A stretch of 24,000 nucleotides of DNA, from NCBI RefSeq assembly GCF_004359545.1, contig NZ_SCWB01000019.1, positions 1 to 24,000 on the forward strand. Reading direction: 5' to 3'. This DNA comes from Macrococcus lamae. Its GTDB lineage: Bacteria > Bacillota > Bacilli > Staphylococcales > Staphylococcaceae. The position numbers were made by a program, and so were the translations under genes. The notes under the pieces are model-generated. The model saw only the letters and a list, made by a program, of their open reading frames with translations, was not told where the DNA came from and made no database searches. Numbering within the stretch: the stretch's first letter is position 1; each line of letters opens with the position of its first letter. Below are positions 448 to 17,946 of this stretch, in pieces.

Positions 448-666
448 CTATTCTGTCAAACGATAACGTACTGAATGACTCTTATTCCCATAGTCAGACC
501 CAAATGTTGTAGGATAATCCGTTGAAGGTTCTTTAACTGGGGGTTTCCCTATCTGTTTAAGCACTTCTTTATATGTGGAGCCATATTTGATTCCGTTATA
601 GTTAAACGTTCCTTCTTTCATCTGTTCAATAATTTGTTTGTCTGTGATATCTGGTAATTTCAGCAC
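448..666 (-). CDS. Hypothetical small protein (72 aa) sharing a G-T-x-(F/Y)-N-G-(I/V)-K-x-G-x-T...GKP motif with the secreted protein at 4777-5334
   Basis: GTG start preceded by AAAGGAGAG at about 6 nt. No signal peptide. The motif similarity to ORF 4777-5334 was seen by eye. Confidence 0.55.
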   Translation of the reverse strand: MLKLPDITDKQIIEQMKEGTFNYNGIKYGSTYKEVLKQIGKPPVKEPSTDYPTTFGSDYGNKSHSVRYRLTE

Positions 667-821
667 TGTGATCTCTCCTTTATCTAGATGCTATGTTAAT
701 TATCATTTTACAGTAATTAGTGATATTAGTAGATATTTTTAATAGAAATGATGTTTGGTCTTGCTTTCAATTTAATATTTAGAGACATTTTCTAGTACAA
801 TAATCTTAAGGGAGGTCTACC

Positions 822-2900
822 ATGAACTCAATTCAAGAACGCGCTACACAAATTTTAAAAGATACCTACGGCGAGGCAAGTGAATTCCGCGAGGGTCAGC
901 TTGAAGCGATTACGGCGGTGGTGAATAAAGAGAAGACGCTGGTGATTCAGAAGACGGGCTGGGGTAAGTCGATTGTGTATTTCATTGCGACTAAGATTCT
1001 GCGCGAGCGTGGTGCGGGGCCGACGATTATTATCAGTCCGCTTCTTGCACTGATGCACAATCAGATTGAAGCGGCTGAAAAGCTCGGTCTTAATGTGGTG
1101 ACGATTAACAGTAACAATCGTGATGACTGGGAGGCAATCTATGCATCGTTCCATACGGTTGATGCGATTATTGTCTCACCTGAAAAGCTGTCGAATACGG
1201 AGTTCATTGACAAGCTCTCGACCGTTTCTGATATTGAGATGGTGGTCGTCGATGAGGCGCATTCGATTTCTGACTGGGGTCACGATTTCAGGCCGGATTA
1301 TCAGCGTATTGTCTACTTATTAAAGAGCTTCCCCGACCACATCGCGATTCTCGGCACGACGGCGACGGCCAATGACCGGGTGATTCAGGATATTAAGGAT
1401 CAGTTAGGCGATTTGAATGTCTTCCGTGGTGACTTGATCCGTGATAATATTTCCATCCAGGTCAATCCATCACAGAGTAAGGTTGAGCGGCTGGCTTTTA
1501 TTACGGATGCTTTGACGCGTCATCCTTTCTTGAGTGAGAATCAAGGGATTATTTATTGTTTAACAAAGAAGGAATGTGATTCTGTTACGGATTTTCTTAT
1601 TCAGAACGGCATTTCAGCTGCAAGATATTATTCCGGGGTACAAAATGAGTTCAGCGAGGATATTTCCGAGGCAATGCTGAACGACTTCCATACAGGTGCG
1701 ACGCGTGTGATTGTCTCGACGGTCAAGCTCGGCATGGGTTATGATAAGTCGGATATCGGCTTTGTCATTCATTTTCAACTGCCGCAGAACTTGATTGCCT
1801 ACTACCAGCAGATTGGTCGTGCGGGACGGGATGGTTCGTCGGCACTTGCGATTTTGCTGCACGGTGATGAGGACGAGGAGATCATCAAGTCATTCATTGA
1901 CAGTGCGAACAAGGATCCGGAACTGCTGCAGCAGATTCTAGAAATTATCGGCGACAGCAAGGATGGACTGAAACGTAACGAGATTCTGCAGCATTTTAAT
2001 TTAAGTGTCACTAAGCTCAGTGCCGTGCTGAAGTATCTCTTTGTCCATAACTATATTTATATGGAGAAGAACAAGTATTATCTTAATCCGAAGCAGCCAT
2101 TTGACGCGGCCCGAAATGCTCATGTACAGCAGCAGTTGAACATGACAAGGCTTGCTGAGCTGGATAATCTGAAACGATTTATCAGTTATGACGGCTGCTA
2201 TATGAAGTTTATCGCTGATGAACTGGACGCACCGGATGTGAAAGAGCGCTGCGGAATCTGTGTGCACTGCAGAGGAAGACAATTTGTGACGCTGTCAGAG
2301 GATAATCCTTATCTCGAGCCGGCTAAAGACTATAAAAATAAGCTGCACGGTGTGATTGCCCCACGCAAACGCTGGTCGAATAACAAGAAGATTGACGACA
2401 ATTTGCAGTTTCGAGAAGGCTGGACATATACTGTTGACCCTTACTCACCGATCGGCAGGCGGTTTATGCTAGAGCGTGAGCAAGGACATTTCTCAGACAA
2501 GACAGTCACAACCATCAGTCAGTTTTTGAAAGAGCATATTGAAGCGAATGATATTGATGTGATTGTCGGAGTACCGAGCATGCGAAGACCGGATCTTATC
2601 AGCGATCTTGCAAAAAAGATAGCAGATCAGCATGGCATCCAGTACGACGAAGAAGCCCTCTTGAAAACAGCTAAAGGTGTATCGCAGAGAGACATGCACA
2701 ACTCGATGATGCAGGAACAGAACGTGCGGGATTATCTTAAAGTTAACCAGGCGGAATTTATCCAAGAGAAGAACGTTCTACTGATTGATGACCTCGTCGA
2801 TTCACGATGGACGATGACCGTTGCTGCCAGTCTGCTGCTGGAACAAGGTGCAGCTCATGTTTATCCATTCGCATTGGTGAATACGGGAAGTAGTGACTAG
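822..2900 (+). CDS. RecQ-family DNA helicase fused to a C-terminal ComFC/GntX-type phosphoribosyltransferase-like domain (692 aa)
   Basis: SD GGGAGG lies 7 nt upstream of the ATG. Helicase motifs: FREGQLEAI, Walker A TGWGKS, VVDEAHSISDWGHDFRPDY (DEAH box), LGTTATA, VSTVKLGMGYDKSDIGFVIHF, QQIGRAGRDG, and a four-Cys cluster CYMKF...CGICVHC. C-terminal ~130 aa: VGVPSMRRPDL...GVSQRDM...EQNVRDYLKV...NVLLIDDLVDSRWTMTVAASLL, which is the ComF/GntX PRTase pattern. Confidence 0.88.
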   Translation: MNSIQERATQILKDTYGEASEFREGQLEAITAVVNKEKTLVIQKTGWGKSIVYFIATKILRERGAGPTIIISPLLALMHNQIEAAEKLGLNVVTINSNNRDDWEAIYASFHTVDAIIVSPEKLSNTEFIDKLSTVSDIEMVVVDEAHSISDWGHDFRPDYQRIVYLLKSFPDHIAILGTTATANDRVIQDIKDQLGDLNVFRGDLIRDNISIQVNPSQSKVERLAFITDALTRHPFLSENQGIIYCLTKKECDSVTDFLIQNGISAARYYSGVQNEFSEDISEAMLNDFHTGATRVIVSTVKLGMGYDKSDIGFVIHFQLPQNLIAYYQQIGRAGRDGSSALAILLHGDEDEEIIKSFIDSANKDPELLQQILEIIGDSKDGLKRNEILQHFNLSVTKLSAVLKYLFVHNYIYMEKNKYYLNPKQPFDAARNAHVQQQLNMTRLAELDNLKRFISYDGCYMKFIADELDAPDVKERCGICVHCRGRQFVTLSEDNPYLEPAKDYKNKLHGVIAPRKRWSNNKKIDDNLQFREGWTYTVDPYSPIGRRFMLEREQGHFSDKTVTTISQFLKEHIEANDIDVIVGVPSMRRPDLISDLAKKIADQHGIQYDEEALLKTAKGVSQRDMHNSMMQEQNVRDYLKVNQAEFIQEKNVLLIDDLVDSRWTMTVAASLLLEQGAAHVYPFALVNTGSSD

Positions 2901-2932
2901 AATTTATCTTTATAAAAGAAAATGGATCAGAA

Positions 2933-2978
2933 AATATGAGACTTTCACTGTTGAAAAATAACGTGAAAGTCTCATATT
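2933..2978. terminator. Bidirectional terminator between the convergent helicase and antitoxin genes
   Basis: 16-bp perfect stem AATATGAGACTTTCAC (2933-2948) / GTGAAAGTCTCATATT (2963-2978) with a 14-nt loop. Confidence 0.8.
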
Positions 2979-3041
2979 ATCGTTTTATGGGACTTTCAAC
3001 CGCAAATCCTCTTCTCAATGTCCCATATAATATAAAAACCA

Positions 3042-3299
3042 TCACAGAATGTTCCAGTCAATATTATCGACATTGGTAAAACCTGAGCCATCTTTCTCTC
3101 TCATTCTCACCGTCTTTAAAGTACCCGATGTTTCTAAATACATTGTTTCCTGTATGCTATTCCAATAATCAAGACTAACGATGACAGCACTATCTTCTTT
3201 TTTTGTTCCATTAATAATTATGGGTTGATAGGTATTATTCACTTGTTTTAAAACTTCATAGAAATTTTCACGTACTTTATCAGGTGTCATAATATCCAT
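3042..3299 (-). CDS. Phd/YefM (Axe-like) type II antitoxin family protein, 85 aa, with no cognate toxin gene
   Basis: The N-terminus (TPDKVRENFYEVLKQVNNTYQPIIING...AVIVSLDYWNSIQETMYLE) and the C-terminal tail (TVRMREKDGSGFTNVDNIDWNIL) match the YefM/Axe antitoxin pattern as I recall it from staphylococcal Axe proteins. SD GAGGTG is upstream. Confidence 0.8.
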   Translation of the reverse strand: MDIMTPDKVRENFYEVLKQVNNTYQPIIINGTKKEDSAVIVSLDYWNSIQETMYLETSGTLKTVRMREKDGSGFTNVDNIDWNIL

Positions 3300-3405
3300 C
3301 TCTTCACCTCGAATACATAATAACGTGCGTAAAGATATATATGAAAAACAGCATTCATTTAATCATTTTATAAACAAGCTTTTATTATCAGTTATTAATT
3401 TCCCG

Positions 3406-3975
3406 TCACTGTTCATTACTTCTTTGATATGGATTCACACCCCACCGGTTCGTGTGCGGTTCTGACGGGGTCACCAGCATAATGAAGTACCAGATATATA
3501 TGCCAATGGTCACAAGAGCAACGAGGCCGAACAAGACCAGCAGGACAGTATCTGACATTGTCTCTGGTTCTGGTGTAGTACGAAACGTTGCGATGTTGAT
3601 GATGAAAACGATAACCATAAAGATAAAGGGCTGAACGATAGGTATGAGAGTATACCATCCTGATTTGCCGATATCATGCATTCTTCTGACTGCGACTGAT
3701 AAATCAGGCAGCAGCTTAGCCAGTGAGAACAATAATAAAAATCCATAAAACAGCGGTAAGATAAACATAATTGGCGGTAATTCACCTGGCTGAAGATCGG
3801 ACGAAGAAGAAATCAGAGCTAAGTATAACAGTACTGTAGTCACAATGCCTATGAGTGCATTGATCAGCACAGGCACCCAGTATTCCTTCCGTCTTGCTCT
3901 CCCCTGAAAGTCTACACCATTCCGCCAGTAGCTCTTATATGCCTGCCAAATGCTCATCGTGTGATCGTTCATCAT
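3406..3975 (-). CDS. DUF805-family integral membrane protein
   Basis: YWRNGVDFQGRARRKEYW signature followed by several hydrophobic helices. The ORF track starts at a GTG (3981) that overlaps the SD AAAGGAGG. The ATG at 3975 is 5 nt after GGAGG and is the more likely start. Confidence 0.8.
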   Translation of the reverse strand: MMNDHTMSIWQAYKSYWRNGVDFQGRARRKEYWVPVLINALIGIVTTVLLYLALISSSSDLQPGELPPIMFILPLFYGFLLLFSLAKLLPDLSVAVRRMHDIGKSGWYTLIPIVQPFIFMVIVFIINIATFRTTPEPETMSDTVLLVLFGLVALVTIGIYIWYFIMLVTPSEPHTNRWGVNPYQRSNEQ

Positions 3976-3992
3976 AGCCACCTCCTTTAATC

Positions 3993-4307
3993 CTACTTCT
4001 TATAAGTCCTGGATTTGAACAAGTAAATATTAAATCCAACTGCACCGAAAAATATTATTGCGAACAAGACATACAATCCCCAGTTCGGTCCGAAGTTATC
4101 AACTAAATATAATGCGATCATCAACGCTATCACAACATATAGAAATCTGCTCATTCCTTGGCATAGCTTCTTCTCGTCATATTGACTCTGCTTTTCTTTA
4201 CTCATCGTACTGTAGCCGGATATCAGCATGGCACCTTTGCCCATAGAGAACATGATGGCAAGCGGTACAAGAAAAAGGAGTATGATGATTAGAACAATTA
4301 AAGGCAC
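3993..4307 (-). CDS. Small membrane protein, DUF3784-like (104 aa), paralog of 17632-17946
   Basis: GTG start with GGAGGG 6 nt upstream. An N-terminal TM helix is followed by GKGAMLISGYSTMSKEKQSQYDEKKL and two further TM helices. Confidence 0.8.
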   Translation of the reverse strand: MPLIVLIIILLFLVPLAIMFSMGKGAMLISGYSTMSKEKQSQYDEKKLCQGMSRFLYVVIALMIALYLVDNFGPNWGLYVLFAIIFFGAVGFNIYLFKSRTYKK

Positions 4308-4429
4308 GTTGATCCCTCCGATGTTTAGTATATTCTCTTTAATTTTATCTTATTTTCCAGATTTGTGTATTTTAATTTTCAGAAAACTGCTATGATTTAT
4401 TCAATCTACAATTACAGGAGGATTTTATC

Positions 4430-4528
4430 ATGTTATTATTCGTCTCACCCATCGGTCTATTAATTAACCTATTAGTGCTTGCGCTCATCGTGTTTGCCAT
4501 TCTTGCCTTACGCAAAAAGTTTCTATAG
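4430..4528 (+). CDS. 32-aa hydrophobic peptide MLLFVSPIGLLINLLVLALIVFAILALRKKFL (type-I-toxin-like small membrane peptide); not in the ORF track
   Basis: AGGAGG lies 8 nt upstream of the ATG. The peptide has a single predicted TM segment with a basic C-terminal tail. A 13-bp-stem terminator follows 22 nt after the stop. Confidence 0.6.
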   Translation: MLLFVSPIGLLINLLVLALIVFAILALRKKFL

Positions 4529-4549
4529 AAGAAGTTTAGTTTTCCATAA

Positions 4550-4580
4550 AAAACCACTTATCATAGCGATAAGTGGTTTT
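4550..4580. terminator. Bidirectional terminator shared by the small-peptide ORF (+) and the tRNA gene (-)
   Basis: Stem AAAACCACTTATC (4550-4562) / GATAAGTGGTTTT (4568-4580) with a 5-nt loop. Confidence 0.8.
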
Positions 4581-4585
4581 CATAA

Positions 4586-4657
4586 TGCACCCTGACGGAT
4601 TCGAACCGCCGACCCCTTGCTTGTCGAGCAAGTATTCTCCCGCTGAACTAAGAGTGC
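4586..4657 (-). tRNA. tRNA-Val(GAC)-like gene with an atypical anticodon loop (UCGACAA; C at position 33)
   Basis: Minus-strand sequence: GCACUCU-UA-GUUC-AGCGGGA-GAAU-A-CUUGC-UCGACAA-GCAAG-GGGUC-GGCGG-UUCGAAU-CCGUC-AGGGUGC-A. It folds into a full cloverleaf with a 7-bp acceptor, a GG in the D loop and a UUCGAAU T loop. No CCA is encoded. Confidence 0.8.
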
Positions 4658-4740
4658 GAATATAATGAATGTGAATTTATTATAGCACTTCCTGAATCGT
4701 TCGCCAATACTCCTGGAAGAAAATCTTATGAGCATCTTTC

Positions 4741-4770
4741 ATAATAAAAGAAATCACCGAAGTGATTTCT
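4741..4770 (-). terminator. Terminator of the secreted-protein gene
   Basis: Stem AGAAATCAC / GTGATTTCT with a 4-nt loop, followed on the minus strand by TTTATTAT. Confidence 0.7.
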
Positions 4771-4776
4771 TCATCA

Positions 4777-5334
4777 TTACTTGGAAAATGCTTTCTTAAT
4801 TGCAGTGATCGTCGCTTTATCAGCGTATTTATAACCCATGAACGCACCGTCGTTTTCGTCATAGACTAAGATAGTCTGACCGTAAATATAGTTTTCTGTT
4901 TCTCCACTGATATAAGTGAAATCTGCTTTCTTCCAGTAGCGCAGCATGTCCTTGTATTTGAAGTTCAAGCTTGATCCGCTGTACTCAATGTAATTCAGTT
5001 TGTAGTTCGCTTTTGTGACACCGCGTTTTCCTGTGAAGTAGATTTCGTGTGTATCATAATCATCATCTGTCTCGATATCGTAAGTCAGCCCATAATCATA
5101 GTATTTATTGATGCTCGTATATGCATATGCTGGTTTGCCCCATTTAGCTTTAGCCGTTGTAACAGTATCGCCGAGTTTTACTCCATTGAAGGTCTTTGTC
5201 CCTTTTTTCATCGCAGTGATGGTCTTCTCAGATTTCAAGTTCGGAAGTCCCGGCGCTTTACTTGCCGCTTCAGCAGGCAGTGTCAGTGCCAGCAGCATCA
5301 TCAGCATTACTATAATTGCAGTTAACTTTTTCAT
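4777..5334 (-). CDS. Secreted protein of unknown function (Sec signal peptide, AEA|AS cleavage motif)
   Basis: N-terminus MKKLTAIIVMLMMLLALTLPAEAAS. The track start at 5340 abuts the SD (AAGGGGA). The second ATG (5334) has 6-nt spacing and is the more likely start. Confidence 0.8.
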   Translation of the reverse strand: MKKLTAIIVMLMMLLALTLPAEAASKAPGLPNLKSEKTITAMKKGTKTFNGVKLGDTVTTAKAKWGKPAYAYTSINKYYDYGLTYDIETDDDYDTHEIYFTGKRGVTKANYKLNYIEYSGSSLNFKYKDMLRYWKKADFTYISGETENYIYGQTILVYDENDGAFMGYKYADKATITAIKKAFSK

Positions 5335-5412
5335 TGTCATTCCCCTTTACCGTTAATAACTCTAGTATAAAAGGAATTAATGTAAAATAAAATGTTTAAT
5401 TGAAATATTTTG

Positions 5413-5456
5413 TAAATAAATAATTGCATCAAACGGACTTGTGGTTTGATGCAATT
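5413..5456 (-). terminator. Terminator after the FlaR-like kinase gene
   Basis: 13-bp stem AATTGCATCAAAC (5422-5434) / GTTTGATGCAATT (5444-5456), followed on the minus strand by an A/T-rich tail. Confidence 0.65.
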
Positions 5457-5458
5457 AT

Positions 5459-5977
5459 CTAATTCTTAGTAGTTCCTACTGTCTCAAGAAACGTCGCAAT
5501 TTGTCGAGGTGTCCTCAATATAATCACTTTTTTGCTCGACTCGACTGTCTCCAGCATCTTCATGATTCCTGGCCGTTTGTCACGCGGGAAATTCCAGATC
5601 CAGCTCAGGAACTCGCGGTCAATTTTCTCGACACAGCCTTCTGCCATATCCGGTCGAACTTGATTTCGATGCGTCAAGTAGCGCTTGATGGCCTGATAGA
5701 CTGTGATACGCCGGTTAATGTCGAGAAAGATAATCGTGTCGGCGCGCGCTATCCGCACGTCAAATGTACTTGAATAGTTACCGTCGATGATCCATTTGTC
5801 GTCTTGCAGGAGCTGCTGCTGAATGACCCGCTGCTCTTCCTTAGTCGTTATGTTCCAGTTCGGTTTCCACATATGGGCGTCCAGATGAATGACTGGAATC
5901 TCTAAGCGGCGCCCCAGCGTTCTCGCGAGTGTGGATTTCCCTGACCCACCTGAACCGATAATCATGATTCGTTCCAT
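5459..5977 (-). CDS. Topology-modulation (FlaR-like) P-loop NMP-kinase-fold protein
   Basis: MERIMIIGSGGSGKSTLAR Walker A, then WIIDGNY and RPDMAEGCVEKIDREFLSWIWNFP, as in FlaR-type 'DNA topology modulation' proteins. The start was chosen at the ATG 6 nt after GGAGG; the track start at 6025 has no SD. Confidence 0.85.
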   Translation of the reverse strand: MERIMIIGSGGSGKSTLARTLGRRLEIPVIHLDAHMWKPNWNITTKEEQRVIQQQLLQDDKWIIDGNYSSTFDVRIARADTIIFLDINRRITVYQAIKRYLTHRNQVRPDMAEGCVEKIDREFLSWIWNFPRDKRPGIMKMLETVESSKKVIILRTPRQIATFLETVGTTKN

Positions 5978-6014
5978 CATATCCCTCCTCATCACATGTC
6001 GGAATATTATAACA

Positions 6015-6041
6015 CAAAAAAACACAGGAGAATCTCCTGTG
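6015..6041 (-). terminator. Terminator after the MBL-fold hydrolase gene
   Basis: Stem CACAGGAG / CTCCTGTG, followed on the minus strand by TTTTTTT. Confidence 0.7.
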
Positions 6042-6050
6042 CTGAGAAAT

Positions 6051-6908
6051 TTAGCGGTTCATCCGTCTGACGTAACGCCCATCTTTCGGGATTGCCATGA
6101 TATCAAAGTTTTCTGCAAGATAATCAAGGTGATGCTCCAAATATTCACCGACGATTTCCTTGCCATGCCCAGTGACTGCAACACGTGGCTTCAGTGCTGC
6201 AAGTCGTCTCACTGATTCTCGTGCAGAGACCCAGTCTGGTGTGAAATATTTCGGCGGACCGTTTAACTCTTCTGTCTGCAGAAATACTTTACGCAGCGAT
6301 TCCTGCTTTACATTGACGAACGCATCGCCTGCAATCAGAACGCGGTCAGCTGGTCTGAAGAATGACACATGACCTGGCGTATGACCAGGTGTATGAATCC
6401 ACTGGAATCCCGGCATAAAAGGCACAGTGCCATCTTCAGGAAGTGCATAGACGTTGTCCTGCAGATTGATCGGCCGCTTCGGAAACATGAATGACATCCG
6501 GGCAGCAAGTCCACCGCCGACACTCGGATCCGGAGACTCATAGTATTCCTTGCCTGTCAGAAACGGAATCTCACGAGGATGTGCGATGACCGGTACTTGC
6601 CAGTCATGAACAAGTTCAATGATAGAGCCGACATGATCAAAGTGACCATGTGTCAATATGATGGCTTTCGGTCTCGCGCCTTTTCCGTAAATATCTTCTG
6701 CTGCCATCTTAATCTGCGTAGCACTGTTCGGAAGACCTCCGTCAACAAGTACAAATTCCTTCGATGACGGATGTCCTACAAAATAGACATTAGCAATTTG
6801 AGTCGTATGGCTGAACAAGTCAGGAAGCACTTGTTTCGTACGTCCGCTTGAAAGTGAAGTGACTGGAATAGATTTGTAATCTTTACCGTATTGCATAGGT
6901 TGTTTCAT
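6051..6908 (-). CDS. MBL-fold metallo-hydrolase
   Basis: ILTHGHFDHVG (HxHxDH), HTPGHTPGH and GDAF motifs. The start was chosen at MKQPMQYG, where AAGGGGGA lies 7 nt upstream. The track start at 6971 adds 21 aa with no SD. Confidence 0.85.
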   Translation of the reverse strand: MKQPMQYGKDYKSIPVTSLSSGRTKQVLPDLFSHTTQIANVYFVGHPSSKEFVLVDGGLPNSATQIKMAAEDIYGKGARPKAIILTHGHFDHVGSIIELVHDWQVPVIAHPREIPFLTGKEYYESPDPSVGGGLAARMSFMFPKRPINLQDNVYALPEDGTVPFMPGFQWIHTPGHTPGHVSFFRPADRVLIAGDAFVNVKQESLRKVFLQTEELNGPPKYFTPDWVSARESVRRLAALKPRVAVTGHGKEIVGEYLEHHLDYLAENFDIMAIPKDGRYVRRMNR

Positions 6909-6984
6909 ATAGCTTTCCCCCTTCTGAAATGTCGCTCTTTCATTATTCCCAATAAATTCAGAATTAATCACAGGCCGACACTCA

Positions 6985-7542
6985 TTATTTACCAGGGTAA
7001 TGAATGACTATATTCAGACGTGTCAATTGATTGCCGGGGTTATGATAGGTATGATGAACGTCTGCATGAAATGATATCGATTCTTCCGCTGCCAGATGAA
7101 ACCGCTCCTCACCGATCATCAGTTCCAGTGCTCCGTCATAGACAGTGATATACTCTGTTGTCCCTGGTCTATGAGGTTTAGCAGCGAAGTATCCTCCTGC
7201 TTCAATTTCTATCATATCTATTTCAACCGGCTTTTTCTGGTCATACGAAAAATACGGATAAACACGATACTTCCCTTCGTCCATCTGCACTTCCTTGAGT
7301 TCTGTTTTCTTCCTGATAGTAATACCTTCTTCAGGCTCACGAATCAGTTCAGTGAATGGAATCTTCAGACCGTTTACAATCTTCCACAATGTCGTGATGG
7401 TAGGAATCGATTCCTGACGTTCAATCTGACCGAGCATCGTCTTACTCACTCCTGTTAGATGAGAGACATTACCGAGCGTCAACTGATGGGCATTACGGTA
7501 AGCTTTTAAGTTAATCGCCACTATTTCATGGATCTCTTTCAT
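6985..7542 (-). CDS. XRE-family HTH transcriptional regulator with a C-terminal cupin domain
   Basis: N-terminal LTLGNVSHLTGVSKTMLGQIERQESIPTITTLWKIVNGL (HTH_3 type). The C-terminal region has a cupin pattern (TEYITVYDGALEL...SFHADVHHTYHNPG). SD AAGGAGG is upstream. Confidence 0.85.
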   Translation of the reverse strand: MKEIHEIVAINLKAYRNAHQLTLGNVSHLTGVSKTMLGQIERQESIPTITTLWKIVNGLKIPFTELIREPEEGITIRKKTELKEVQMDEGKYRVYPYFSYDQKKPVEIDMIEIEAGGYFAAKPHRPGTTEYITVYDGALELMIGEERFHLAAEESISFHADVHHTYHNPGNQLTRLNIVIHYPGK

Positions 7543-9744: not shown

Positions 9745-10788
9745 TCAGTCCCAAAAATCATCCGTCATGTGCTCTAGCCGCTGCAGCGCTTCTTCGACAC
9801 CATAACTGATGCCTTCCTTGGCAAAGTCACGCTCGTGTTTTGTAATTTCCCGTGCTGCGAACAAAAAGGTATAGAAGCGTCTCAGCGATGTGCCGAACTG
9901 TCTGACTTCCTTACTTCCCACCCATAGCGCCTTCCGAACGAGGAAGTCATCCAGGAAATCATACGGGTCACGCATATCAGTCACTGGCGTTCTGATGCCG
10001 TAATTCAGCAGATAGACGTCGACGAAAAAGGCGATATTTTCTACGTGTTCGGAAGCTGTCTGCTCCGTCATTTTATCGTGATTGATCAAATAATGGCGGA
10101 ATGACTCGAGCAGCTTCTGATTATTGTCTTGAACCTCTGCAGCAATCGTCTCATAGCCCTCAAACCAGCCTCCGTTCGCTGCGTAGTCATCCCAGTGAGA
10201 GAACGGCTGCCACGTGCGCGTCACTTTGTATCGTGTCATCTTCTGGTGTTCGAGTGGCACGACAGGTCTCAATTTAATATGCGCTTTGAACGCTTGCTTC
10301 AGGGCTGACTTGCCCGTACGATATTCCGGCTTCAGAAACGGATAGTCGCTGAGCTTGTCCATCAATGGCTGAGGAAATCGCTCCGTTAAATCAATGTGCT
10401 GGTAGGACAGCAGCTTGACATACTGATTAACCGCACTGATAACCGAACGATTATAAGCTGTATTCACTTCCAGCGTCCTGGCATTGGTTAAATACCGTTC
10501 AATATTATCCGGGTCATGCAGCACTGCATTGAACTGCTGTCTAATCCCCTGTTCAATCAGCACATCCAATTGTTTTCTATCCTGCGCCTTAACGTCCGTA
10601 ATAATCACCGGCGTATAAGTCAGGTCATTGACGAGAACAAGCACTTTCTTACGGTCGACGTTGATATAAGTCGCATGCCATGAATACAGCGGATTAGCAG
10701 CAGCGGCACTTTCCGCCTCTAGTCTACTTGTGCTCGGCGTTAACTGATTGAACAGTGGCAAGGTCTTCTTAGTAGGATTGATGATCAT
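9745..10788 (-). CDS. Hypothetical two-domain protein (347 aa); the N-terminus resembles the DUF6933-type pattern
   Basis: SD GAGGA lies 6 nt upstream. The N-terminus reads MIINPTKKTL...PLYSWHATYINVDRKKVLVLVNDLTYTPVII, a pattern I recall from uncharacterised DUF6933-like proteins. The C-terminal half is helical with no catalytic motif I recognise. Confidence 0.7.
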   Translation of the reverse strand: MIINPTKKTLPLFNQLTPSTSRLEAESAAAANPLYSWHATYINVDRKKVLVLVNDLTYTPVIITDVKAQDRKQLDVLIEQGIRQQFNAVLHDPDNIERYLTNARTLEVNTAYNRSVISAVNQYVKLLSYQHIDLTERFPQPLMDKLSDYPFLKPEYRTGKSALKQAFKAHIKLRPVVPLEHQKMTRYKVTRTWQPFSHWDDYAANGGWFEGYETIAAEVQDNNQKLLESFRHYLINHDKMTEQTASEHVENIAFFVDVYLLNYGIRTPVTDMRDPYDFLDDFLVRKALWVGSKEVRQFGTSLRRFYTFLFAAREITKHERDFAKEGISYGVEEALQRLEHMTDDFWD

Positions 10789-10851
10789 CGAATTCCTCGT
10801 TTCTGGGGTGGATTTGCAGGTTGGTCATCGGGAAGATGGACATCATTGACA

Positions 10852-11625
10852 TCAATCAACAATAGCCGCCACCTTTGCTTTGTCCGACCATCTGACAATT
10901 TCTATATCTTCACTGCGAGCAGCCATTAAAACTTTATCTGATAGCTTATTATCCTCGTCATTGGCAATTATCTTATAAACGGGCTTGATTCCTTCCAGAT
11001 GATAACGTTCATTGACGACATCCTTGTATTTAAAGGCATCCGTAGTAAAGACATTGAAATTCAGGTCGTTCACGAAATCAATCAGGATCTCTGGCTTATG
11101 CTTACGAGGATTGATCACAAAGTTAATTTTATAATTGATGCCAGTCGTTCCGGTCAGACTTTGATTATATGAACCATATATTTCTTTTTCCTCAAAATAA
11201 GACAACACTTCGTCGACAAACAAATTAGAAACATTACTCTTAGTAGTCATAGTCAAATCATAAATTTTCAAAATGCCTTGCATTAAATCATGCTTGCTCT
11301 GTGCAAAGTGTCTTGCATCTGTATCAATATATATTTCATTATCAGCCATGCTTAAATTAAATTGTTTGAGTGTATGTGAAATAATTCTTTGTCGCGTCTC
11401 ATTCTTAAAATCAATCAACTACATCTCAAGTTCATTTAATGTCTGCCCGTCGTCAGATAAACGAAATTGATTATTTTCAAGAGGTTCTACGTATATGCGA
11501 ATATAGTCATTGATATGATTACGGAATGGCGTCTCAATCTCCACCACTTCATTAAGATAATTAATAGACGATTTGTTCTTCAAAAACAAAAAATAATCAT
11601 TCATCAGCTGATCGATATTTTTCAT
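10852..11625 (-). pseudogene. DUF1828/DUF1829-family gene interrupted by an in-frame TAG (11421..11419)
   Basis: The 68-aa ORF (DUF1828-like) and the 188-aa ORF (DUF1829-like) are in the same frame, separated only by TAG: ...AAT GAA CTT GAG ATG TAG TTG ATT GAT... The downstream part would need a TTG start and has no SD. Confidence 0.65.
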
Positions 11626-11835
11626 ATACGCTGCTCCTTTTTATAGTATGTCATCAAAGATGAAGGAAGCCAAAGATTTCTTTCATAATATCATAAAACT
11701 TTAACAGCAGTTCCTTTAACTATATTACCAGCTTTATCTTCAAAGTAGACTGTAAGGACTGCGGTAAGTTATACAATCAAGTTAGCCATCTAAGATGGAA
11801 GATACATTATTTATAAAAAAATACGCCATACTGAT

Positions 11836-11866
11836 AAAAAAACTTACACTGTGAAAGTGTAAGCTT
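11836..11866 (-). terminator. Terminator after the formamidase/FmdB pair
   Basis: The minus strand reads GCTTACACT-ttcac-AGTGTAAGT followed by TTTTTTT. Confidence 0.8.
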
Positions 11867-11868
11867 CC

Positions 11869-12138
11869 CTATAACGTCCATGGCATAGGATTTTGATTAC
11901 GATTGAGTTGTTTGACATTACTCTTTGGGAGGTTTTCGCGTTTAACGACTTTCGGTGTCATGCCTGAATTGATTCTTTTGTATAACTTTGAATCCATTTG
12001 ATTCGTTCTAAAACTTTTATAGATCCGGTTTGTCACTTCACCACATTCAGGGCAGGCGTCTTCTTGCAAATTACTGTTCATTGATTTCCATATGTCATAT
12101 TCTCCGCAACGTTGGCAAACAAATGTATATTTAGGCAT
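11869..12138 (-). CDS. FmdB-family zinc-ribbon (putative regulatory) protein
   Basis: MPKYTFVCQRCGEYD...CPECGE gives a CxxC...CxxC ribbon. The start overlaps the formamidase stop (TAATG), which implies translational coupling. Confidence 0.8.
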   Translation of the reverse strand: MPKYTFVCQRCGEYDIWKSMNSNLQEDACPECGEVTNRIYKSFRTNQMDSKLYKRINSGMTPKVVKRENLPKSNVKQLNRNQNPMPWTL

Positions 12139-13325
12139 TATTCATCAAGCTTCGGAATAATATTATTTAAGAAGATTTCTTTAGGTAAAGAAACCGTACA
12201 ACATGCATTTGGAACATCAACAATACCCGCAACATTACCTTGAACGGGTGCTGATCCGAGTAGCATATAAGCCTGCTCACCTGTGTAACCGCATGATTTC
12301 AAGAATTCAATCGCATTGAGACATGCATTTCTGTATGCCGTATTGGCATCTAAATACGTTTGGTCACCAGAAAATTCATTGACTGAGATCCCTTCAAATA
12401 CTAAGTACTCATTATAATGCGGCATCACTGGCCCGGGTTGGAAGGCCGGATTTCTCTTAATCTTGTACTTGTCCATGCCACCTTTAATGACATTCACTTT
12501 AAGCTTAATCCAGCCGGGCATTTCAATACCGCCACAGAAAGTAATCTCACCGTCACCTTGAGAGAAATGTAAATCCCCAACAGATAGCTTAGCACCATCA
12601 ACAAATACAGGGAAGTAAATTCTGGAACCTTTCGATAAGTTCTTAATATCACAGTTACCACCGTTCTCACGTGGTGGTACAGTACGTGCACCTTCTTTAG
12701 CCACACGATCAAAATCTGCGCCTTTCAACGTACCCAGTACACAAGAATCAGGATCTGGTAAATTCGCTAATGCCGGGACTCGATTCGGATTCGTATCAAC
12801 TAATGCCTTCTCACGTCTATTCCACTCATCCAGCATTTCCTGACTCGGTGCAACACCAATTAAGCCAGGGTGAATAATACCTGCAAATTTAACATTCGGG
12901 ACATGACGACTCGTCGCATAAATACCTTCAAAATCCCAAATTGACTTCGCTGCATTTGGATAATGATCCACTAAGAAACTACCGCCATTTTCCTTAGCAA
13001 AAATACCATTAAAACCCCACTCATGCGCACTGAAAGTACCAATATCTAAAATATCAACCACTAACAAATCACCAGGTTCAACACCATTAACATAAACCGG
13101 ACCACTCAGAACATGAACACGATTTAAATTAACGTTCTTAATATCTGTTGGATCATCATTATTGCTGATCTGACCATCCGTCCAGTCTAAACATTCCATT
13201 TTGAAACTTTCCCCAGGTTCAACAGAAAAAGCAGCCGGAATATCAGGATGCCATCTATTATGTCCTGGATATTTCTGTTCGTGCATCTTTTTAGTTAAAT
13301 CGATTTCGAAGATTTTTTTCGCCAT
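12138..13325 (-). CDS. Formamidase/acetamidase (FmdA_AmdA family amidohydrolase)
   Basis: 395 aa. YPGHNRWHPDIP, VHVLSGPVYVNGVEPGDLLVVDILDIG and GGNCDIKNL are characteristic of the acetamidase/formamidase family. SD AGGAGGG is upstream, and there is a TTGTAA-17-TATACT promoter candidate. Confidence 0.88.
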   Translation of the reverse strand: MAKKIFEIDLTKKMHEQKYPGHNRWHPDIPAAFSVEPGESFKMECLDWTDGQISNNDDPTDIKNVNLNRVHVLSGPVYVNGVEPGDLLVVDILDIGTFSAHEWGFNGIFAKENGGSFLVDHYPNAAKSIWDFEGIYATSRHVPNVKFAGIIHPGLIGVAPSQEMLDEWNRREKALVDTNPNRVPALANLPDPDSCVLGTLKGADFDRVAKEGARTVPPRENGGNCDIKNLSKGSRIYFPVFVDGAKLSVGDLHFSQGDGEITFCGGIEMPGWIKLKVNVIKGGMDKYKIKRNPAFQPGPVMPHYNEYLVFEGISVNEFSGDQTYLDANTAYRNACLNAIEFLKSCGYTGEQAYMLLGSAPVQGNVAGIVDVPNACCTVSLPKEIFLNNIIPKLDE

Positions 13326-13402
13326 TTGAGTCCCTCCTATTAAACTAATATTACACTTTTAGTATAGTAATATTTTCTGAAAATTACAATTTTTATGGAG
13401 TT

Positions 13403-13438
13403 AAAAAATAAAAAAAGACAAGAAATCAATCTTGTCTC
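13403..13438 (-). terminator. Terminator downstream of the KAP NTPase gene
   Basis: The minus strand reads AGACAAG-attgattt-CTTGTCT followed by TTTTTTTATTTTTT. Confidence 0.7.
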
Positions 13439-13591
13439 AAAGTCTCCAATAATCTATTTTCACTTTGACATGCTACTATAACTGACAAAGACGCATAATA
13501 TCAATCTTCTGGTAAAACTGATGCTGAAGACTAAGAAATCGTCATAATTAATTCACATCAACTTGGTAATAATCATCTTTATTATTGACTA

Positions 13592-15451
13592 TTATTTTAT
13601 CGACCTAACTTTAAACTTCAATCTATTATAATCATATTCATTTTCAGTTACAGCATACAATATTCTATATAATGCATCCAATCCCGCTTCAGCATTATAG
13701 TGATAACCGAGTTTCAGTTTCTTATTTTTTTCAGGTATATATATTGTTGCACACTTAGGATATTTAGTATCATCCTTTTCTATTATCTCCGCTTCTTTAG
13801 CAACGCTTTCCGGCACGTTATTCTCTATTAAAAATTGAGGATTTGATAAACGTTCTAAATAGATTTCTTGATTGTTTATATCTCTTAATAAATCACTTAT
13901 TACTACGCTGAAAGCATACTTCGGTTCCATATTTTCCTTAAGACTTCCATCAATCTGTTTTAAAGAAATCGATTTTCTCTGAATCTTATATTTATATCTC
14001 TCTTTATAGAAATCTTGAAGACTAATTTCTTCTTCATCACCAAACGTTCTTACATTCTCTATTGTATCAGTCTTCTCTCCAGAACTTGTCGTTTCACTAT
14101 AACCAAGAATATTAATGAAATCAGTCAAATGATCAGTAGACAGTTCCTCATTTTCACTTATTCCTAACTTCCCTGACTCGTCATTAAAATAGAGTGAATT
14201 AAGAAGGTCGTGTGTTAGCTGTAAAAACCTTTCGTATTTTTTAAGATTATACTCAATCTCTTCATCATATACAGTACCGTAATTAAAATGTTCTAATTCT
14301 TCATGTAACTGATTATCGAAAGATATATCTTCTTCCGTTGTTTGAGTTATGAGTTCTAATATTTTCTCTTCATCATGTTTATACTTAATAAGTAAAATAT
14401 ATAGAGGCTGACTAGATAATTGCATACAAATAACAGAAAGCATTAGAGCTTGATATTTTTTATCGTTCATTAACGTTTGATCTAATGCCATCACTCGCAT
14501 ATTTAATGAGTAATAATTTATAAGTCTTTTAATCGCTCTAGGATTGCTACCAACTGAAAACTTAATTATTTCTAACAAAGGTTTGATATAGTTATCCGTA
14601 TTATCTTTAAATAAATCTATTTTTTCTTTAAGCAATGATTCATATTTATAAACTTCAACTGGAATTTTAAAAGGTACTTGAATCATTTTTTCCATAAAAC
14701 TTTTAGTTTTCTCATTCGAAGTATTTTTTATATGTTTAACACCTTGTTCTATCACTTTGTTATCAACCGCTAAAACAAATACGCAACCTTCTACATCAAC
14801 AAATAGTTTAATCACTTCTAATAATTTAACTGCAATTTCTGGTGATAAACGATCTAAGTCATCGATAAAGATGACTATTCTCCCGTCTTTACCTAATCTA
14901 GAAAGTCTATTATTAACAACTTCTTGCATAGTTTTCCTCAACACACTTATCATTTGTGCAATGTCTAAAGTTGTTAACTCATTTCCATCTTCTTGAGTTT
15001 CTGCATCTTTACCTATTGGAAATGTATATCCTAGTGGACCTAAAGTGATAGTTCCACCACTCACTGCTTTCGATAGTCCATTTAAAATTTTATTAATTCT
15101 TCCTCTTTCTTTTTCATTTTCTTGTACTCCAATTTCATTTATAAGATACTTCAGAAAGGAAATGCCTATATGATGCTCTAAATTAAATTGTGAATATTGC
15201 CACGTATTAAATTTAAATGTAATTATCTTATCTCGGTTGTTTTCTCTAAGATAATTATCTATAAAGTTTATAAATGATGTCTTCCCTGTTCCCCAACCAC
15301 CTTGTAATGCGATAGTGATAGGTGTCTCACAATACTCAATAAATTCGCCCAATGCTTCAACATATGGTATGATTTCAAATTTATCATGCTTACTTTCACT
15401 TATTGGAGTATCATTTGTTCCCAAACCATATTCTCTTCTTGTTTTCATCAA
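13592..15451 (-). CDS. KAP-family P-loop NTPase (619 aa) with an uncharacterised C-terminal region
   Basis: Walker A LQGGWGTGKTSFINF and Walker B RIVIFIDDLDRL, followed by AVKLLEVIKLF, which is the KAP NTPase pattern. No TM hairpin lies between Walker A and B. SD AAGGGGAGAG is upstream. The gene is very AT-rich; spot counts give 20-30% G+C. Confidence 0.85.
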   Translation of the reverse strand: MMKTRREYGLGTNDTPISESKHDKFEIIPYVEALGEFIEYCETPITIALQGGWGTGKTSFINFIDNYLRENNRDKIITFKFNTWQYSQFNLEHHIGISFLKYLINEIGVQENEKERGRINKILNGLSKAVSGGTITLGPLGYTFPIGKDAETQEDGNELTTLDIAQMISVLRKTMQEVVNNRLSRLGKDGRIVIFIDDLDRLSPEIAVKLLEVIKLFVDVEGCVFVLAVDNKVIEQGVKHIKNTSNEKTKSFMEKMIQVPFKIPVEVYKYESLLKEKIDLFKDNTDNYIKPLLEIIKFSVGSNPRAIKRLINYYSLNMRVMALDQTLMNDKKYQALMLSVICMQLSSQPLYILLIKYKHDEEKILELITQTTEEDISFDNQLHEELEHFNYGTVYDEEIEYNLKKYERFLQLTHDLLNSLYFNDESGKLGISENEELSTDHLTDFINILGYSETTSSGEKTDTIENVRTFGDEEEISLQDFYKERYKYKIQRKSISLKQIDGSLKENMEPKYAFSVVISDLLRDINNQEIYLERLSNPQFLIENNVPESVAKEAEIIEKDDTKYPKCATIYIPEKNKKLKLGYHYNAEAGLDALYRILYAVTENEYDYNRLKFKVRSIK

Positions 15452-15679
15452 ACTCTCCCCTTTTTACAAACTTAATTCACAGTATTTCTCTTTTAAGCCT
15501 TACAAATAAATTTAGAATAAATTTTGCTTTCACACCACTTTGACCTTTTAAATTTGCTTTTCTCTTCTTATCACACTTAATCTCCTAATAAGTAAAATTG
15601 TCAATATAATTTATTGTTTACATAAACATTATACTTCTAAGTTATTAAAATAGTATAATTACTTTGTAAATATTTTATT

Positions 15680-15949
15680 ATGAGGGTTTATATGGAAAAA
15701 AATGAGATGGAGATAATACGACTTATTAAGTCCATTAACCACAATAAAGATTTCTAATATCGTTTCCATCAAACAATTGTGACCCATAATTTCACAAATG
15801 TGCAGGATGATCTTGCTCATTATCTGAAAGTCCATATTCTGTTAAGTCATATTGAAAGTAATTTGTCTAAAGCCAAGCTGATAGAAAAAAATTATACGGT
15901 ATCTCTGCAAATAGATGTGTCACACCACTCATATCTAGAGATACAATAA
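15680..15949 (+). pseudogene. Possible decayed small gene (89-codon frame with one internal TAA at 15755)
   Basis: ATG (15680 or 15692; GAGGG lies upstream of the latter)...KDF-TAA-YRFHQTIVTHNFTNVQDDLAHYLKVHILLSHIESNLSKAKLIEKNYTVSLQIDVSHHSYLEIQ-TAA. A 63-codon open stretch is unusual in roughly 70% A+T DNA. No family was recognised. Confidence 0.25.
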
Positions 15950-15975
15950 ACTCATTACAGAAAGGTGGGCGCGTC

Positions 15976-17745: not shown

Positions 17746-17946
17746 ATAGAGTGCAATAATTGCTGCACTGACAACAAACAAAAACTTGCCCATACCCTGG
17801 CATAATTTCTTCTCGTCATACTGGCTCTGCTGGTCTTTACTCATCGTATTGTAGCCGGCGATCAGCATCGCACCTTTCCCCATTGAAAACATAACAGCAA
17901 GCGGTATAAGGATGAATAATATGATAATCAGTACAACAAGCGGCAT
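17632..17946 (-). CDS. Small membrane protein, DUF3784-like (104 aa), paralog of 3993-4307
   Basis: ATG with GGAGGG upstream. Same length and architecture as 3993-4307 (GKGAMLIAGYNTMSKDQQSQYDEKKL). Confidence 0.8.
   Translation of the reverse strand: MPLVVLIIILFILIPLAVMFSMGKGAMLIAGYNTMSKDQQSQYDEKKLCQGMGKFLFVVSAAIIALYLVTNFGPEWGPYVLFAVIFVSTIGFNSYMFRTKVYKK

Follow-up and report, generated by a model that had tools for sequence, protein, structure and literature searches.

What does the toxin gene of a two-gene module do where its antitoxin gene is missing? The question is raised by rqlH1, a gene at positions 822–2900 of the forward strand in the first 24,000 nucleotides (nt) of Macrococcus lamae contig NZ_SCWB01000019.1 (assembly GCF_004359545.1); this whole stretch is called the window below. 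The gene encodes a RecQ-like helicase joined to a phosphoribosyltransferase (PRTase)-like domain. We conclude that rqlH1 is, with near certainty, the M. lamae orthologue of RqlH/PsyrT, i.e., an uncharacterised new member of a known family, and we consider it quite likely that its partner was lost and that the gene has been retained for a stand-alone DNA-surveillance or repair helicase, not for the toxin of a two-gene system.

Family identity

The PADLOC model PsyrT (PDLC03928) matched residues 1–692 of the rqlH1 product over profile positions 1–688 of 689 (E = 9.5e-216). PsyrT of Pseudomonas syringae aligned with the product over the full length (36% identity, 711 alignment columns, E = 1e-135), and a genuine PsyrA gene (PADLOC E = 4.9e-135) follows downstream of that PsyrT. 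PsyrTA of P. syringae is equated with RqlH–RqlI of extraintestinal E. coli (PMC4670107; Sberro 2013; Millman 2022). The relationship to PsyrT/RqlH that the initial annotation of the window had offered as one option is thus borne out from end to end. The product is identical (100%) to an M. lamae protein entry at NCBI.

The initial annotation had also described the gene as a new combination of two separate "toxin-side" domains. That description has to be given up, as the helicase–PRTase fusion already defines RqlH/PsyrT (PMC3378886; PMC4670107; 10.1101/2022.05.11.491447); the domain fusion of rqlH1 is not new. The family's architecture has been on record since 2012, its toxicity and antitoxin since 2015 and its role in defence since 2022. 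RqlH of Mycobacterium smegmatis (691 amino acids, aa) comprises a RecQ-like ATPase, a linker specific to RqlH, a tetracysteine zinc domain and a ComF/PRTase-like C-terminus, with HRDC absent (Ordonez, Unciuleac & Shuman 2012, PMC3378886); its first 505 aa suffice for ATPase activity dependent on single-stranded DNA, 3'–5' translocation and unwinding (PMC3378886). Escherichia coli RqlH is genotoxic and SOS-inducing via its PRTase domain (Russell & Mulvey 2015, PMC4670107). According to the same study, this domain is required for toxicity and non-toxic when expressed alone, the helicase part helps to restrain it, and the DprA-like RqlI, which neutralises RqlH toxicity in E. coli, co-immunoprecipitates with full-length RqlH and not with PRTase-deleted RqlH (PMC4670107). 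Many genomes carry rqlH without rqlI, and in Shigella the PRTase part of rqlH was split off by an insertion sequence element (Russell & Mulvey 2015, PMC4670107). PsyrTA and RqlHI are one and the same system; it acts against phages, and its toxin bears a PRTase domain (Millman 2022, 10.1101/2022.05.11.491447).

Domain architecture of rqlH1

The gene is an open reading frame (ORF) of 692 aa with an ATG start and a TAG stop codon at 2898–2900. Its parts and the signals around it are listed below (SF2, superfamily 2; PRPP, phosphoribosyl pyrophosphate; AF2, AlphaFold2).

772–801, + strand: promoter-like site, TTAATA, 18-nt spacer, TACAAT (consensus scan only, 9 of 12 matches; no evidence of function)
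808–815, + strand: strong ribosome-binding site, AAGGGAGG, 6 nt before the rqlH1 ATG at 822 (read from the sequence)
822–2900, + strand: rqlH1, full-length RqlH/PsyrT-family protein, 692 aa (ORF, PADLOC PsyrT, PsyrT alignment)
822–1871, + strand: RecQ-like SF2 ATPase/helicase core, aa 1–350 (Pfam DEAD and Helicase_C, NCBIfam recQ_fam, PDB RecQ matches)
1872–2195, + strand: RqlH-specific linker from the ATPase core to the cysteine cluster, aa 351–458 (PDB RecQ matches end near aa 360–390)
2196–2270, + strand: putative zinc module with four cysteines, C459, C477, C480 and C483 (conserved cysteine columns)
2319–2897, + strand: ComF-like PRTase-fold C-terminal domain, aa ~500–692 (AF2 model, Foldseek, phmmer, TIGR00201/GntX)
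2778–2813, + strand: PRPP-binding loop motif LLIDDLVDSRWT, aa 653–664 (near-invariant residues among 78 RqlH sequences)
2934–2977, no strand: perfect inverted repeat of 15 bp, ATATGAGACTTTCAC ... GTGAAAGTCTCATAT, lying between rqlH1 and the convergent Phd/YefM gene (read from the sequence)

All motifs quoted in the initial annotation were recovered from the translation: FREGQLEAI (aa 22–30), TGWGKS (aa 45–50, with GKS of motif I at 48–50), DEAHSISDWGHDFRPDY (beginning at aa 144, with DEAH at 144–147), QQIGRAGRDG, VGVPS, SQRDM, NVRDYLKV and NVLLIDDLVDSRWTMT (with its DLVD at aa 657–660). The motif and profile matches of rqlH1 are far beyond chance.

The complete RecQ-type motor noted earlier was confirmed by Pfam (DEAD, E = 2.3e-25; Helicase_C, E = 2.1e-16), by NCBIfam recQ_fam (TIGR00614, 270.9 bits, above the cut-off of 219.8) and by PDB sequences, where phmmer matched aa ~4–360 only, to RecQ, BLM, RECQ1, RECQ5 and WRN; the RecQ entries 4tmu and 1oyw scored E = 1e-54 and 6e-53, respectively. 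The scores for classical RecQ stayed below the cut-offs of both the equivalog TIGR01389 (292.6 bits versus 640.2) and PRK11057 (229.6 bits versus 1015). Judged from the conserved motifs, the motor is predicted to be active as an ATPase and helicase. The RqlH-specific linker has no counterpart in the PDB RecQ matches, and Pfam gave a weak winged-helix match at aa 368–422 and no match to RecQ_Zn_bind or HRDC in rqlH1.

The cysteine cluster has the spacing C-x17-C-x2-C-x2-C, with conservation of at least 90% in each of the four columns across 56 homologues. P. syringae PsyrT (L024:6474–8561; L numbers denote loci fetched for comparison) lacks, in the part aligned to rqlH1 aa 459–483, all four cysteines found in the Macrococcus and mycobacterial proteins, and the cluster is therefore not universal in the RqlH/PsyrT family.

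For the C-terminal domain, the initial annotation had proposed a ComF-like PRTase. The fold was confirmed by an AF2 model of aa 490–692, built on an alignment of the 56 homologues (mean per-residue confidence, pLDDT, 93.3; predicted template modelling score 0.88), and by Foldseek, whose top matches in the PDB were exclusively PRTase-fold proteins. They included E. coli PurF (E = 8.7e-5), Helicobacter pylori ComF (7p0h, E = 1.3e-4, the longest alignment, 170 columns), ShosT (8zvc/8zvd, E = 1.9e-4), PRPP synthetases and PyrR. Sequence matches agreed: around the PRPP loop, phmmer aligned the C-terminal fragment with PRPP synthetase (E = 2e-4) and with PurF (E = 7e-4), TIGR00201 comF gave E = 1.8e-7 (31.3 bits versus a cut-off of 233.55), GntX gave E = 2.4e-7 (30.4 bits versus 304), and Pfam Pribosyltran (PF00156) reached 24.2 bits, under its cut-off of 26.3. 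The PRPP loop DDLVDSRWT is intact, and D656, D657, S661, W663 and T664 show no or almost no variation among the 78 RqlH sequences. For the related ShosT toxin, PRPP binding is indispensable (PMC11961720, PMC12961424). On the strength of the model, the PRTase/ComF-like assignment holds. What had been taken for a ~90-aa linker after the cysteine cluster is confidently folded from about aa 510 and forms the N-terminal half of the ComF-like domain.

Absence of the RqlI/PsyrA partner

The earlier remark that no DprA/SLOG-type gene lies beside either rqlH copy (a second, truncated copy is described below) was upheld by searches with hidden Markov models (HMMs), which found none in any frame of the window; PADLOC PsyrA had no match among the rqlH1 neighbours. 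We searched six-frame translations of the window and the fetched loci with jackhmmer, starting from P. syringae PsyrA for the canonical partner and, separately, from the downstream gene of the nearest outgroups for a divergent one. Even at E ≤ 50 with filters off, neither HMM found a partner in the window or in the Macrococcus loci L001–L007; the best score there, E = 0.28, fell on RqlH itself. The adjacent, co-oriented PsyrA/RqlI gene that makes up the second half of the PsyrTA/RqlHI module is not present at rqlH1, nor at five other loci from Macrococcus.

A scan of genome contigs yielded at least 80 diverse RqlH loci; the 80 listed (L008–L087) served as the comparison set and contain no Macrococcus, for which gene context was taken from exact-protein look-ups. 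Canonical PsyrA lay immediately downstream on the same strand in 76 of the 80 loci, and L012 was the 77th with a SLOG/DprA-like partner, of the divergent type. All ~20 Bacillota and Actinomycetota loci among them have a downstream PsyrA-type partner (for example Blautia, Lachnospiraceae, Clostridium nigeriense, Ruminococcus and Mycobacterium colombiense). With sensitive profiles, nearly all listed loci show a partner; the published figure of 99.6% of Gram-positive RqlH carriers without RqlI conflicts with this and therefore probably reflects strict BLAST ortholog criteria.

Each of the four closest outgroups of Macrococcus RqlH (47–53% identity) carries a gene of 416–606 aa directly downstream, which the canonical PsyrA HMM barely detects (E = 2e-5 to 0.13). 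The possibility that these loci are orphans was rejected: jackhmmer links the gene to the canonical PsyrA family, and its model is SLOG/DprA-like (pLDDT 87.5), with ShosA as the top Foldseek match, followed by ThsA SLOG domains, H. pylori DprA and LOG. PADLOC PsyrA matches the protein weakly and over the N-terminal ~90 residues only, and Pfam finds no domain in it. As judged from the model, the gene represents a divergent RqlI/PsyrA subfamily, whose members lie directly downstream of RqlH in Enterococcus, Leuconostoc, Erysipelotrichia, Coriobacteriales and Basilea, at the following positions.

L088:8086–9336, divergent RqlI/PsyrA gene
L090:8098–9354, divergent RqlI/PsyrA gene
L092:8102–9412, divergent RqlI/PsyrA gene
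L094:8129–9949, divergent RqlI/PsyrA gene
L012:8575–10011, divergent RqlI/PsyrA gene

In a collection of 5.8 billion proteins the divergent partner had 72 relatives, all annotated as "hypothetical"; the named hosts were Enterococcus, Leuconostoc, Breznakia, Erysipelothrix, Coriobacteriales and Basilea, and Macrococcus was absent from the 72. Because the divergent partner has no Pfam domain and only the weak N-terminal PADLOC match, defence finders built on current PsyrA models likely miss systems of this type.

On a neighbour-joining tree, the RqlH proteins of Macrococcus were monophyletic; their sister group was the clade that has the divergent partner, and two further partnered lineages branched next. 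Since Macrococcus is thus nested among partnered clades, loss of the partner is more likely than ancestral absence; it was probably lost in the Macrococcus ancestor.

RqlH relatives of 942–1056 aa in Enorma/Coriobacteriales were considered as RqlH–RqlI fusions and rejected, as their extra ~360 aa are N-terminal and have no PsyrA or Pfam match. The N-terminal extension of these proteins (P0092, P0095) measures ~250–360 aa and has no match in Pfam or PADLOC.

Conservation of rqlH in Macrococcus

At least 11 named species of Macrococcus/Macrococcoides carry full-length orthologues of rqlH1 (686–692 aa, 67–85% identity), among them M. carouselicus, M. brunensis, M. hajekii, M. equipercicus, M. animalis, M. 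equi, M. armenti, M. capreoli, Macrococcoides canis and Macrococcoides bohemicum. Beyond these, the next-best matches share at most 54% identity. Pairwise Nei–Gojobori ratios of nonsynonymous to synonymous substitution rates (dN/dS) between Macrococcus orthologues were 0.05–0.08 for the helicase and 0.10–0.15 for the C-terminal domain, values that are rough, with synonymous sites saturated (dS about 1.3 or undefined); against M. canis, the ratio was incomputable at saturated dS. These comparisons point to full-length rqlH being kept in Macrococcus chromosomes under purifying selection, the C-terminal domain included.

Among 71 partnered RqlH proteins, 176 columns are at least 85% conserved. 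Macrococcus deviates at 13 of the 42 such columns in the C-terminal domain versus 15 of 121 in the helicase. Eight near-invariant positions that are kept in the partnered sister clade are replaced in Macrococcus (W226F, L536Y, V548F/I, K552R, L561T, F596L, L604H/K and K623R/H), seven of them in the C-terminal domain. The substitutions would fit a relaxed constraint on a surface that binds the partner or a compensatory attenuation, although we infer this from the pattern alone. We considered whether D660N in M. canis, taken as the site of E. coli D663, is detoxifying, and rejected this, as DDIVNSRWT also occurs in two proteins from paired systems, PsyrT of P. syringae and an E. coli allele; D663 of E. 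coli F11 could not be mapped with certainty.

Truncated RqlH forms of 382–502 aa were also found among the database matches. In one M. brunensis strain (L004 10001–12072), rqlH is frameshifted into ORFs of 382, 78 and 142 aa. The allele of this strain shares 76% DNA identity with that of another M. brunensis strain (L001).

A truncated second copy

The window contains a second rqlH gene.

15976–17745, + strand: rqlH2-delta, truncated second copy, 589 aa, without the PRTase domain (homology, PADLOC)

Homology to rqlH1 extends up to nt 17546 only (aa ~1–523), with 77.6% DNA identity between 831–2395 and 15982–17546, and PADLOC PsyrT matches profile positions 5–515 only. The tail after nt 17546 consists of 66 unrelated codons antisense to a DUF3784 gene. 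The copy is cut exactly where the PRTase domain begins, and the helicase-sufficient core is kept. It has its own ribosome-binding site, and its dN/dS of 0.075 relative to rqlH1 indicates that it was under constraint for most of its divergence from that gene.

The first 365 aa of rqlH2-delta are 97% identical to the full-length M. equipercicus RqlH, and the genes around it are arranged as in M. equipercicus: DUF6933, Zn-ribbon, formamidase, KAP NTPase, rqlH, DUF3784, mtlA-R-F-D and glmM. Window positions 11763–17546 share 97.0% identity with M. equipercicus (L095 5783–11571), versus 84–92% in the flanks. This block comprises the 5' 1.57 kb of rqlH2-delta and 4.2 kb upstream (formamidase, KAP NTPase), and it ends exactly at the truncation point. 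The pattern suggests a recent recombination or transfer with a breakpoint inside rqlH, and the PRTase domain was likely lost through recombination or deletion at this breakpoint. M. lamae has two versions of rqlH, one truncated at an M. equipercicus-type locus and the other full-length, across glmS, at an M. brunensis-type locus.

Between glmS and rqlH2-delta, minus-strand genes at 9745–15451 form a block that includes DUF6933 (PDC-S63-like in PADLOC), a DUF1828/DUF1829 ORF truncated at its N-terminus (PDC-M24B-like), a Zn-ribbon protein together with a formamidase, and a KAP-family NTPase of 619 aa (PifA/QatA/PDC-S20-like). The DUF1828/1829 segment (about 10821–11762) is an insertion relative to M. 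equipercicus. GC content of the window falls to 29–31% at 13–16 kb. Two DUF3784 paralogues on the minus strand (3993–4307 and 17632–17946; 76% DNA identity) each lie downstream of an rqlH copy, and DUF3784 also follows rqlH in M. equipercicus.

Genomic neighbourhood

The neighbours of rqlH1 are those given in the initial annotation, a YefM-type antitoxin gene and two genes for small membrane proteins.

3042–3299, − strand: Phd/YefM-family antitoxin gene (Pfam E = 1.1e-12)
3406–3981, − strand: DUF805 gene, neighbour of rqlH1
3993–4307, − strand: DUF3784 gene, neighbour of rqlH1

The Phd/YefM gene is convergent with rqlH1 and separated from its stop codon by 141 bp that include the hairpin at 2934–2977. 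This inverted repeat is likely a bidirectional terminator, judging by its sequence and position; the terminator scan made no call there, and a T-run is absent after the stem. No toxin remnant was recognisable by eye downstream of Phd/YefM in three frames of 2700–3045 on the minus strand, where no profile search was run.

No neighbour of rqlH was found to be conserved across M. brunensis, M. carouselicus, M. equipercicus and M. canis. M. brunensis and M. carouselicus have a common downstream synteny (HlyIII, MBL-fold, NUDIX and IsaB), and downstream of rqlH1 lie MBL-fold and kinase-like genes in common with both species and glmS in common with M. brunensis. The upstream flank is variable across Macrococcus genomes. 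In M. brunensis it carries Thoeris, an SLFN-like helicase with a MazG-like gene, HSDR_N and a transposase (in the L004 strain, Thoeris, as SIR2-STALD and TIR, and the SLFN-like helicase with the MazG-like gene lie at 478–7056); in M. carouselicus, DUF4411; and in M. canis, NERD and pilin genes. The rqlH gene is thus chromosomal and inherited vertically, but it borders a defence-gene hotspot. The initial annotation had set universal conservation at a fixed housekeeping locus, with no enrichment near defence or mobile genes and no toxicity or protection phenotype, against a defence role. The genus-wide chromosomal occurrence of rqlH points in that direction, but the defence genes in the upstream flank of several genomes do not.

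Possible roles of rqlH1

We favour the reading that rqlH1 lost its partner and was retained as a stand-alone helicase. Its RecQ-like motor (aa 1 to ~500) would work as a 3'–5' helicase, by analogy with M. smegmatis RqlH. The protein would act alone in Macrococcus, in DNA surveillance or repair and possibly as a single-gene defence; this physiological role is one that we infer. Its PRTase domain may be restrained in cis by the helicase part, attenuated by the lineage-specific substitutions, or both. The orphan gene is read as functional because it is kept genus-wide, under purifying selection and with an intact PRPP loop.

Several observations weigh against this reading. The PRTase domain is deleted in rqlH2-delta of the same window and frameshifted off in one M. 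brunensis strain, and this pattern of loss is easier to reconcile with residual toxicity or dispensability than with a housekeeping role that is essential. The defence genes in the upstream flank of several genomes would suit a role in defence. The dN/dS values are rough, as stated above, and the partner search covered loci, not whole Macrococcus genomes, so that an unlinked RqlI-like gene is not strictly excluded.

Recurrent loss of the PRTase part alone, in rqlH2-delta, M. brunensis and Shigella, suggests that the domain is costly. As a tentative and rather doubtful proposal, an rqlH without antitoxin could have been kept for the whole life of the genus either because it has a beneficial, non-suicidal function of its own or because it was detoxified by a few C-terminal substitutions. 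If detoxification is true, the replacements from L536Y to K623R/H (all those listed above except W226F) would mark an RqlI-binding or regulatory surface. The independent, repeated loss of the PRTase part would show a remaining cost. The Macrococcus-specific substitutions offer candidate residues for study, and a genus with the "toxin" minus the antitoxin is a natural system for studying the PRTase reaction of RqlH/PsyrT and its restraint. The orphan state is mildly interesting, the fusion itself being known.

The alternative that survives best, unlikely as we judge it, is a single-gene system against phages or other mobile genetic elements, i.e., PsyrTA minus the antitoxin, in which the helicase would sense foreign or damaged DNA and free the PRTase effector to block replication. 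PsyrTA is a validated defence system (10.1101/2022.05.11.491447), and the helicase domain helps to restrain the PRTase domain in E. coli (PMC4670107). The defence genes bordering rqlH in M. brunensis (Thoeris, SLFN-like/MazG-like, HSDR_N) and M. canis (NERD), together with the KAP NTPase (PifA/QatA-like), PDC-M24B-like and PDC-S63-like ORFs beside rqlH2-delta, point the same way. However, vertical conservation across a genus is atypical for mobile defence genes, and downstream synteny is common to M. brunensis, M. carouselicus and, in part, rqlH1. Moreover, mutants lacking psyrA were unobtainable in tested systems, possibly owing to toxicity, which argues that the effector normally needs its partner.

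Improbable, in our estimate, is that rqlH1 is the decaying remnant of a PsyrTA system, left without its antitoxin and heading towards a functionless pseudogene. Deletion of the PRTase part in rqlH2-delta, the M. brunensis frameshift, the truncated database forms and the more frequent replacement of conserved columns in the C-terminal domain would all be expected of such decay. Against it stand an ORF that, although synonymous divergence is saturated, has stayed intact (686–692 aa) in at least 11 species, dN/dS values far under 1 for every domain, intact PRPP-loop residues and good predicted expression signals, including the strong ribosome-binding site.

We give very little weight to a two-gene toxin with a non-canonical antitoxin, either Phd/YefM or another small neighbour, an option raised in the initial annotation. 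The Phd/YefM ORF lies close to the rqlH1 stop, and no toxin gene of its own adjoins it, but its convergent orientation, the 15-bp-stem hairpin between the two genes, its absence beside rqlH in M. brunensis, M. carouselicus, M. equipercicus and M. canis (where no other neighbour is conserved either) and its absence beside rqlH2-delta largely refute this reading; Phd/YefM is not credible as the partner of rqlH1. A competence factor for DNA uptake that unites ComFA-like and ComFC-like functions in one chain is hardly plausible: the C-terminal domain is ComF-like by sequence and fold and the partner in related systems is DprA-like, but the comF and GntX scores of ~30 bits lie far from the cut-offs, the motor is of RecQ and not ComFA type, no competence genes were found nearby, and a DprA-like partner is exactly what rqlH1 misses.

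Comparison with known systems

ComFC/ComF (H. pylori 7p0h) and GntX share with rqlH1 the PRTase fold and a similar N-terminal extension. ComFC, in contrast, is a stand-alone protein of ~200–250 aa encoded in a competence operon with the ComFA helicase, whereas the domain of rqlH1 is fused to a RecQ-type helicase, scores far under the family cut-offs and has no com genes found near it; rqlH1 is accordingly not placed in ComFC/GntX. ShosT of ShosTA (PDB 8zvb–8zvd) is likewise a PRTase-fold effector that binds PRPP and has a DprA-like antitoxin in its own system, but it carries an N-terminal pyrophosphatase domain where rqlH1 has the helicase. The PADLOC ShosT model was not among the best 25 of the 42 families matching rqlH1 at E ≤ 0.1, and it was seen to match relatives only (E ~1e-9); as far as the structure model tells, the likeness to ShosT is at the level of the fold only. 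Classical RecQ (E. coli, PDB 1oyw) has a closely matching ATPase core and a similar four-cysteine spacing, whereas rqlH1 lacks HRDC and has an extra linker and a PRTase domain in place of the usual C-terminus.

With the E. coli RqlH–RqlI and P. syringae PsyrTA toxins, rqlH1 shares the PADLOC PsyrT profile, which it matches end to end, and the PRPP motif DDxV[DN]SRWT. It differs in having no adjacent RqlI/PsyrA and in the eight near-invariant positions that are replaced in Macrococcus; in addition, P. syringae PsyrT lacks the four-cysteine cluster. A mycobacterial relative, from M. colombiense (L038), has a PsyrA-like gene downstream, and Macrococcus has none. Biochemistry is known for M. smegmatis RqlH (MSMEG_5935), whereas the Macrococcus protein is known from sequence and model. 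The two proteins agree in length class (691 versus 692 aa), in the order of their domains, including the ~90-aa linker, in the absence of HRDC and in the conserved Walker A lysine and DEAH box.

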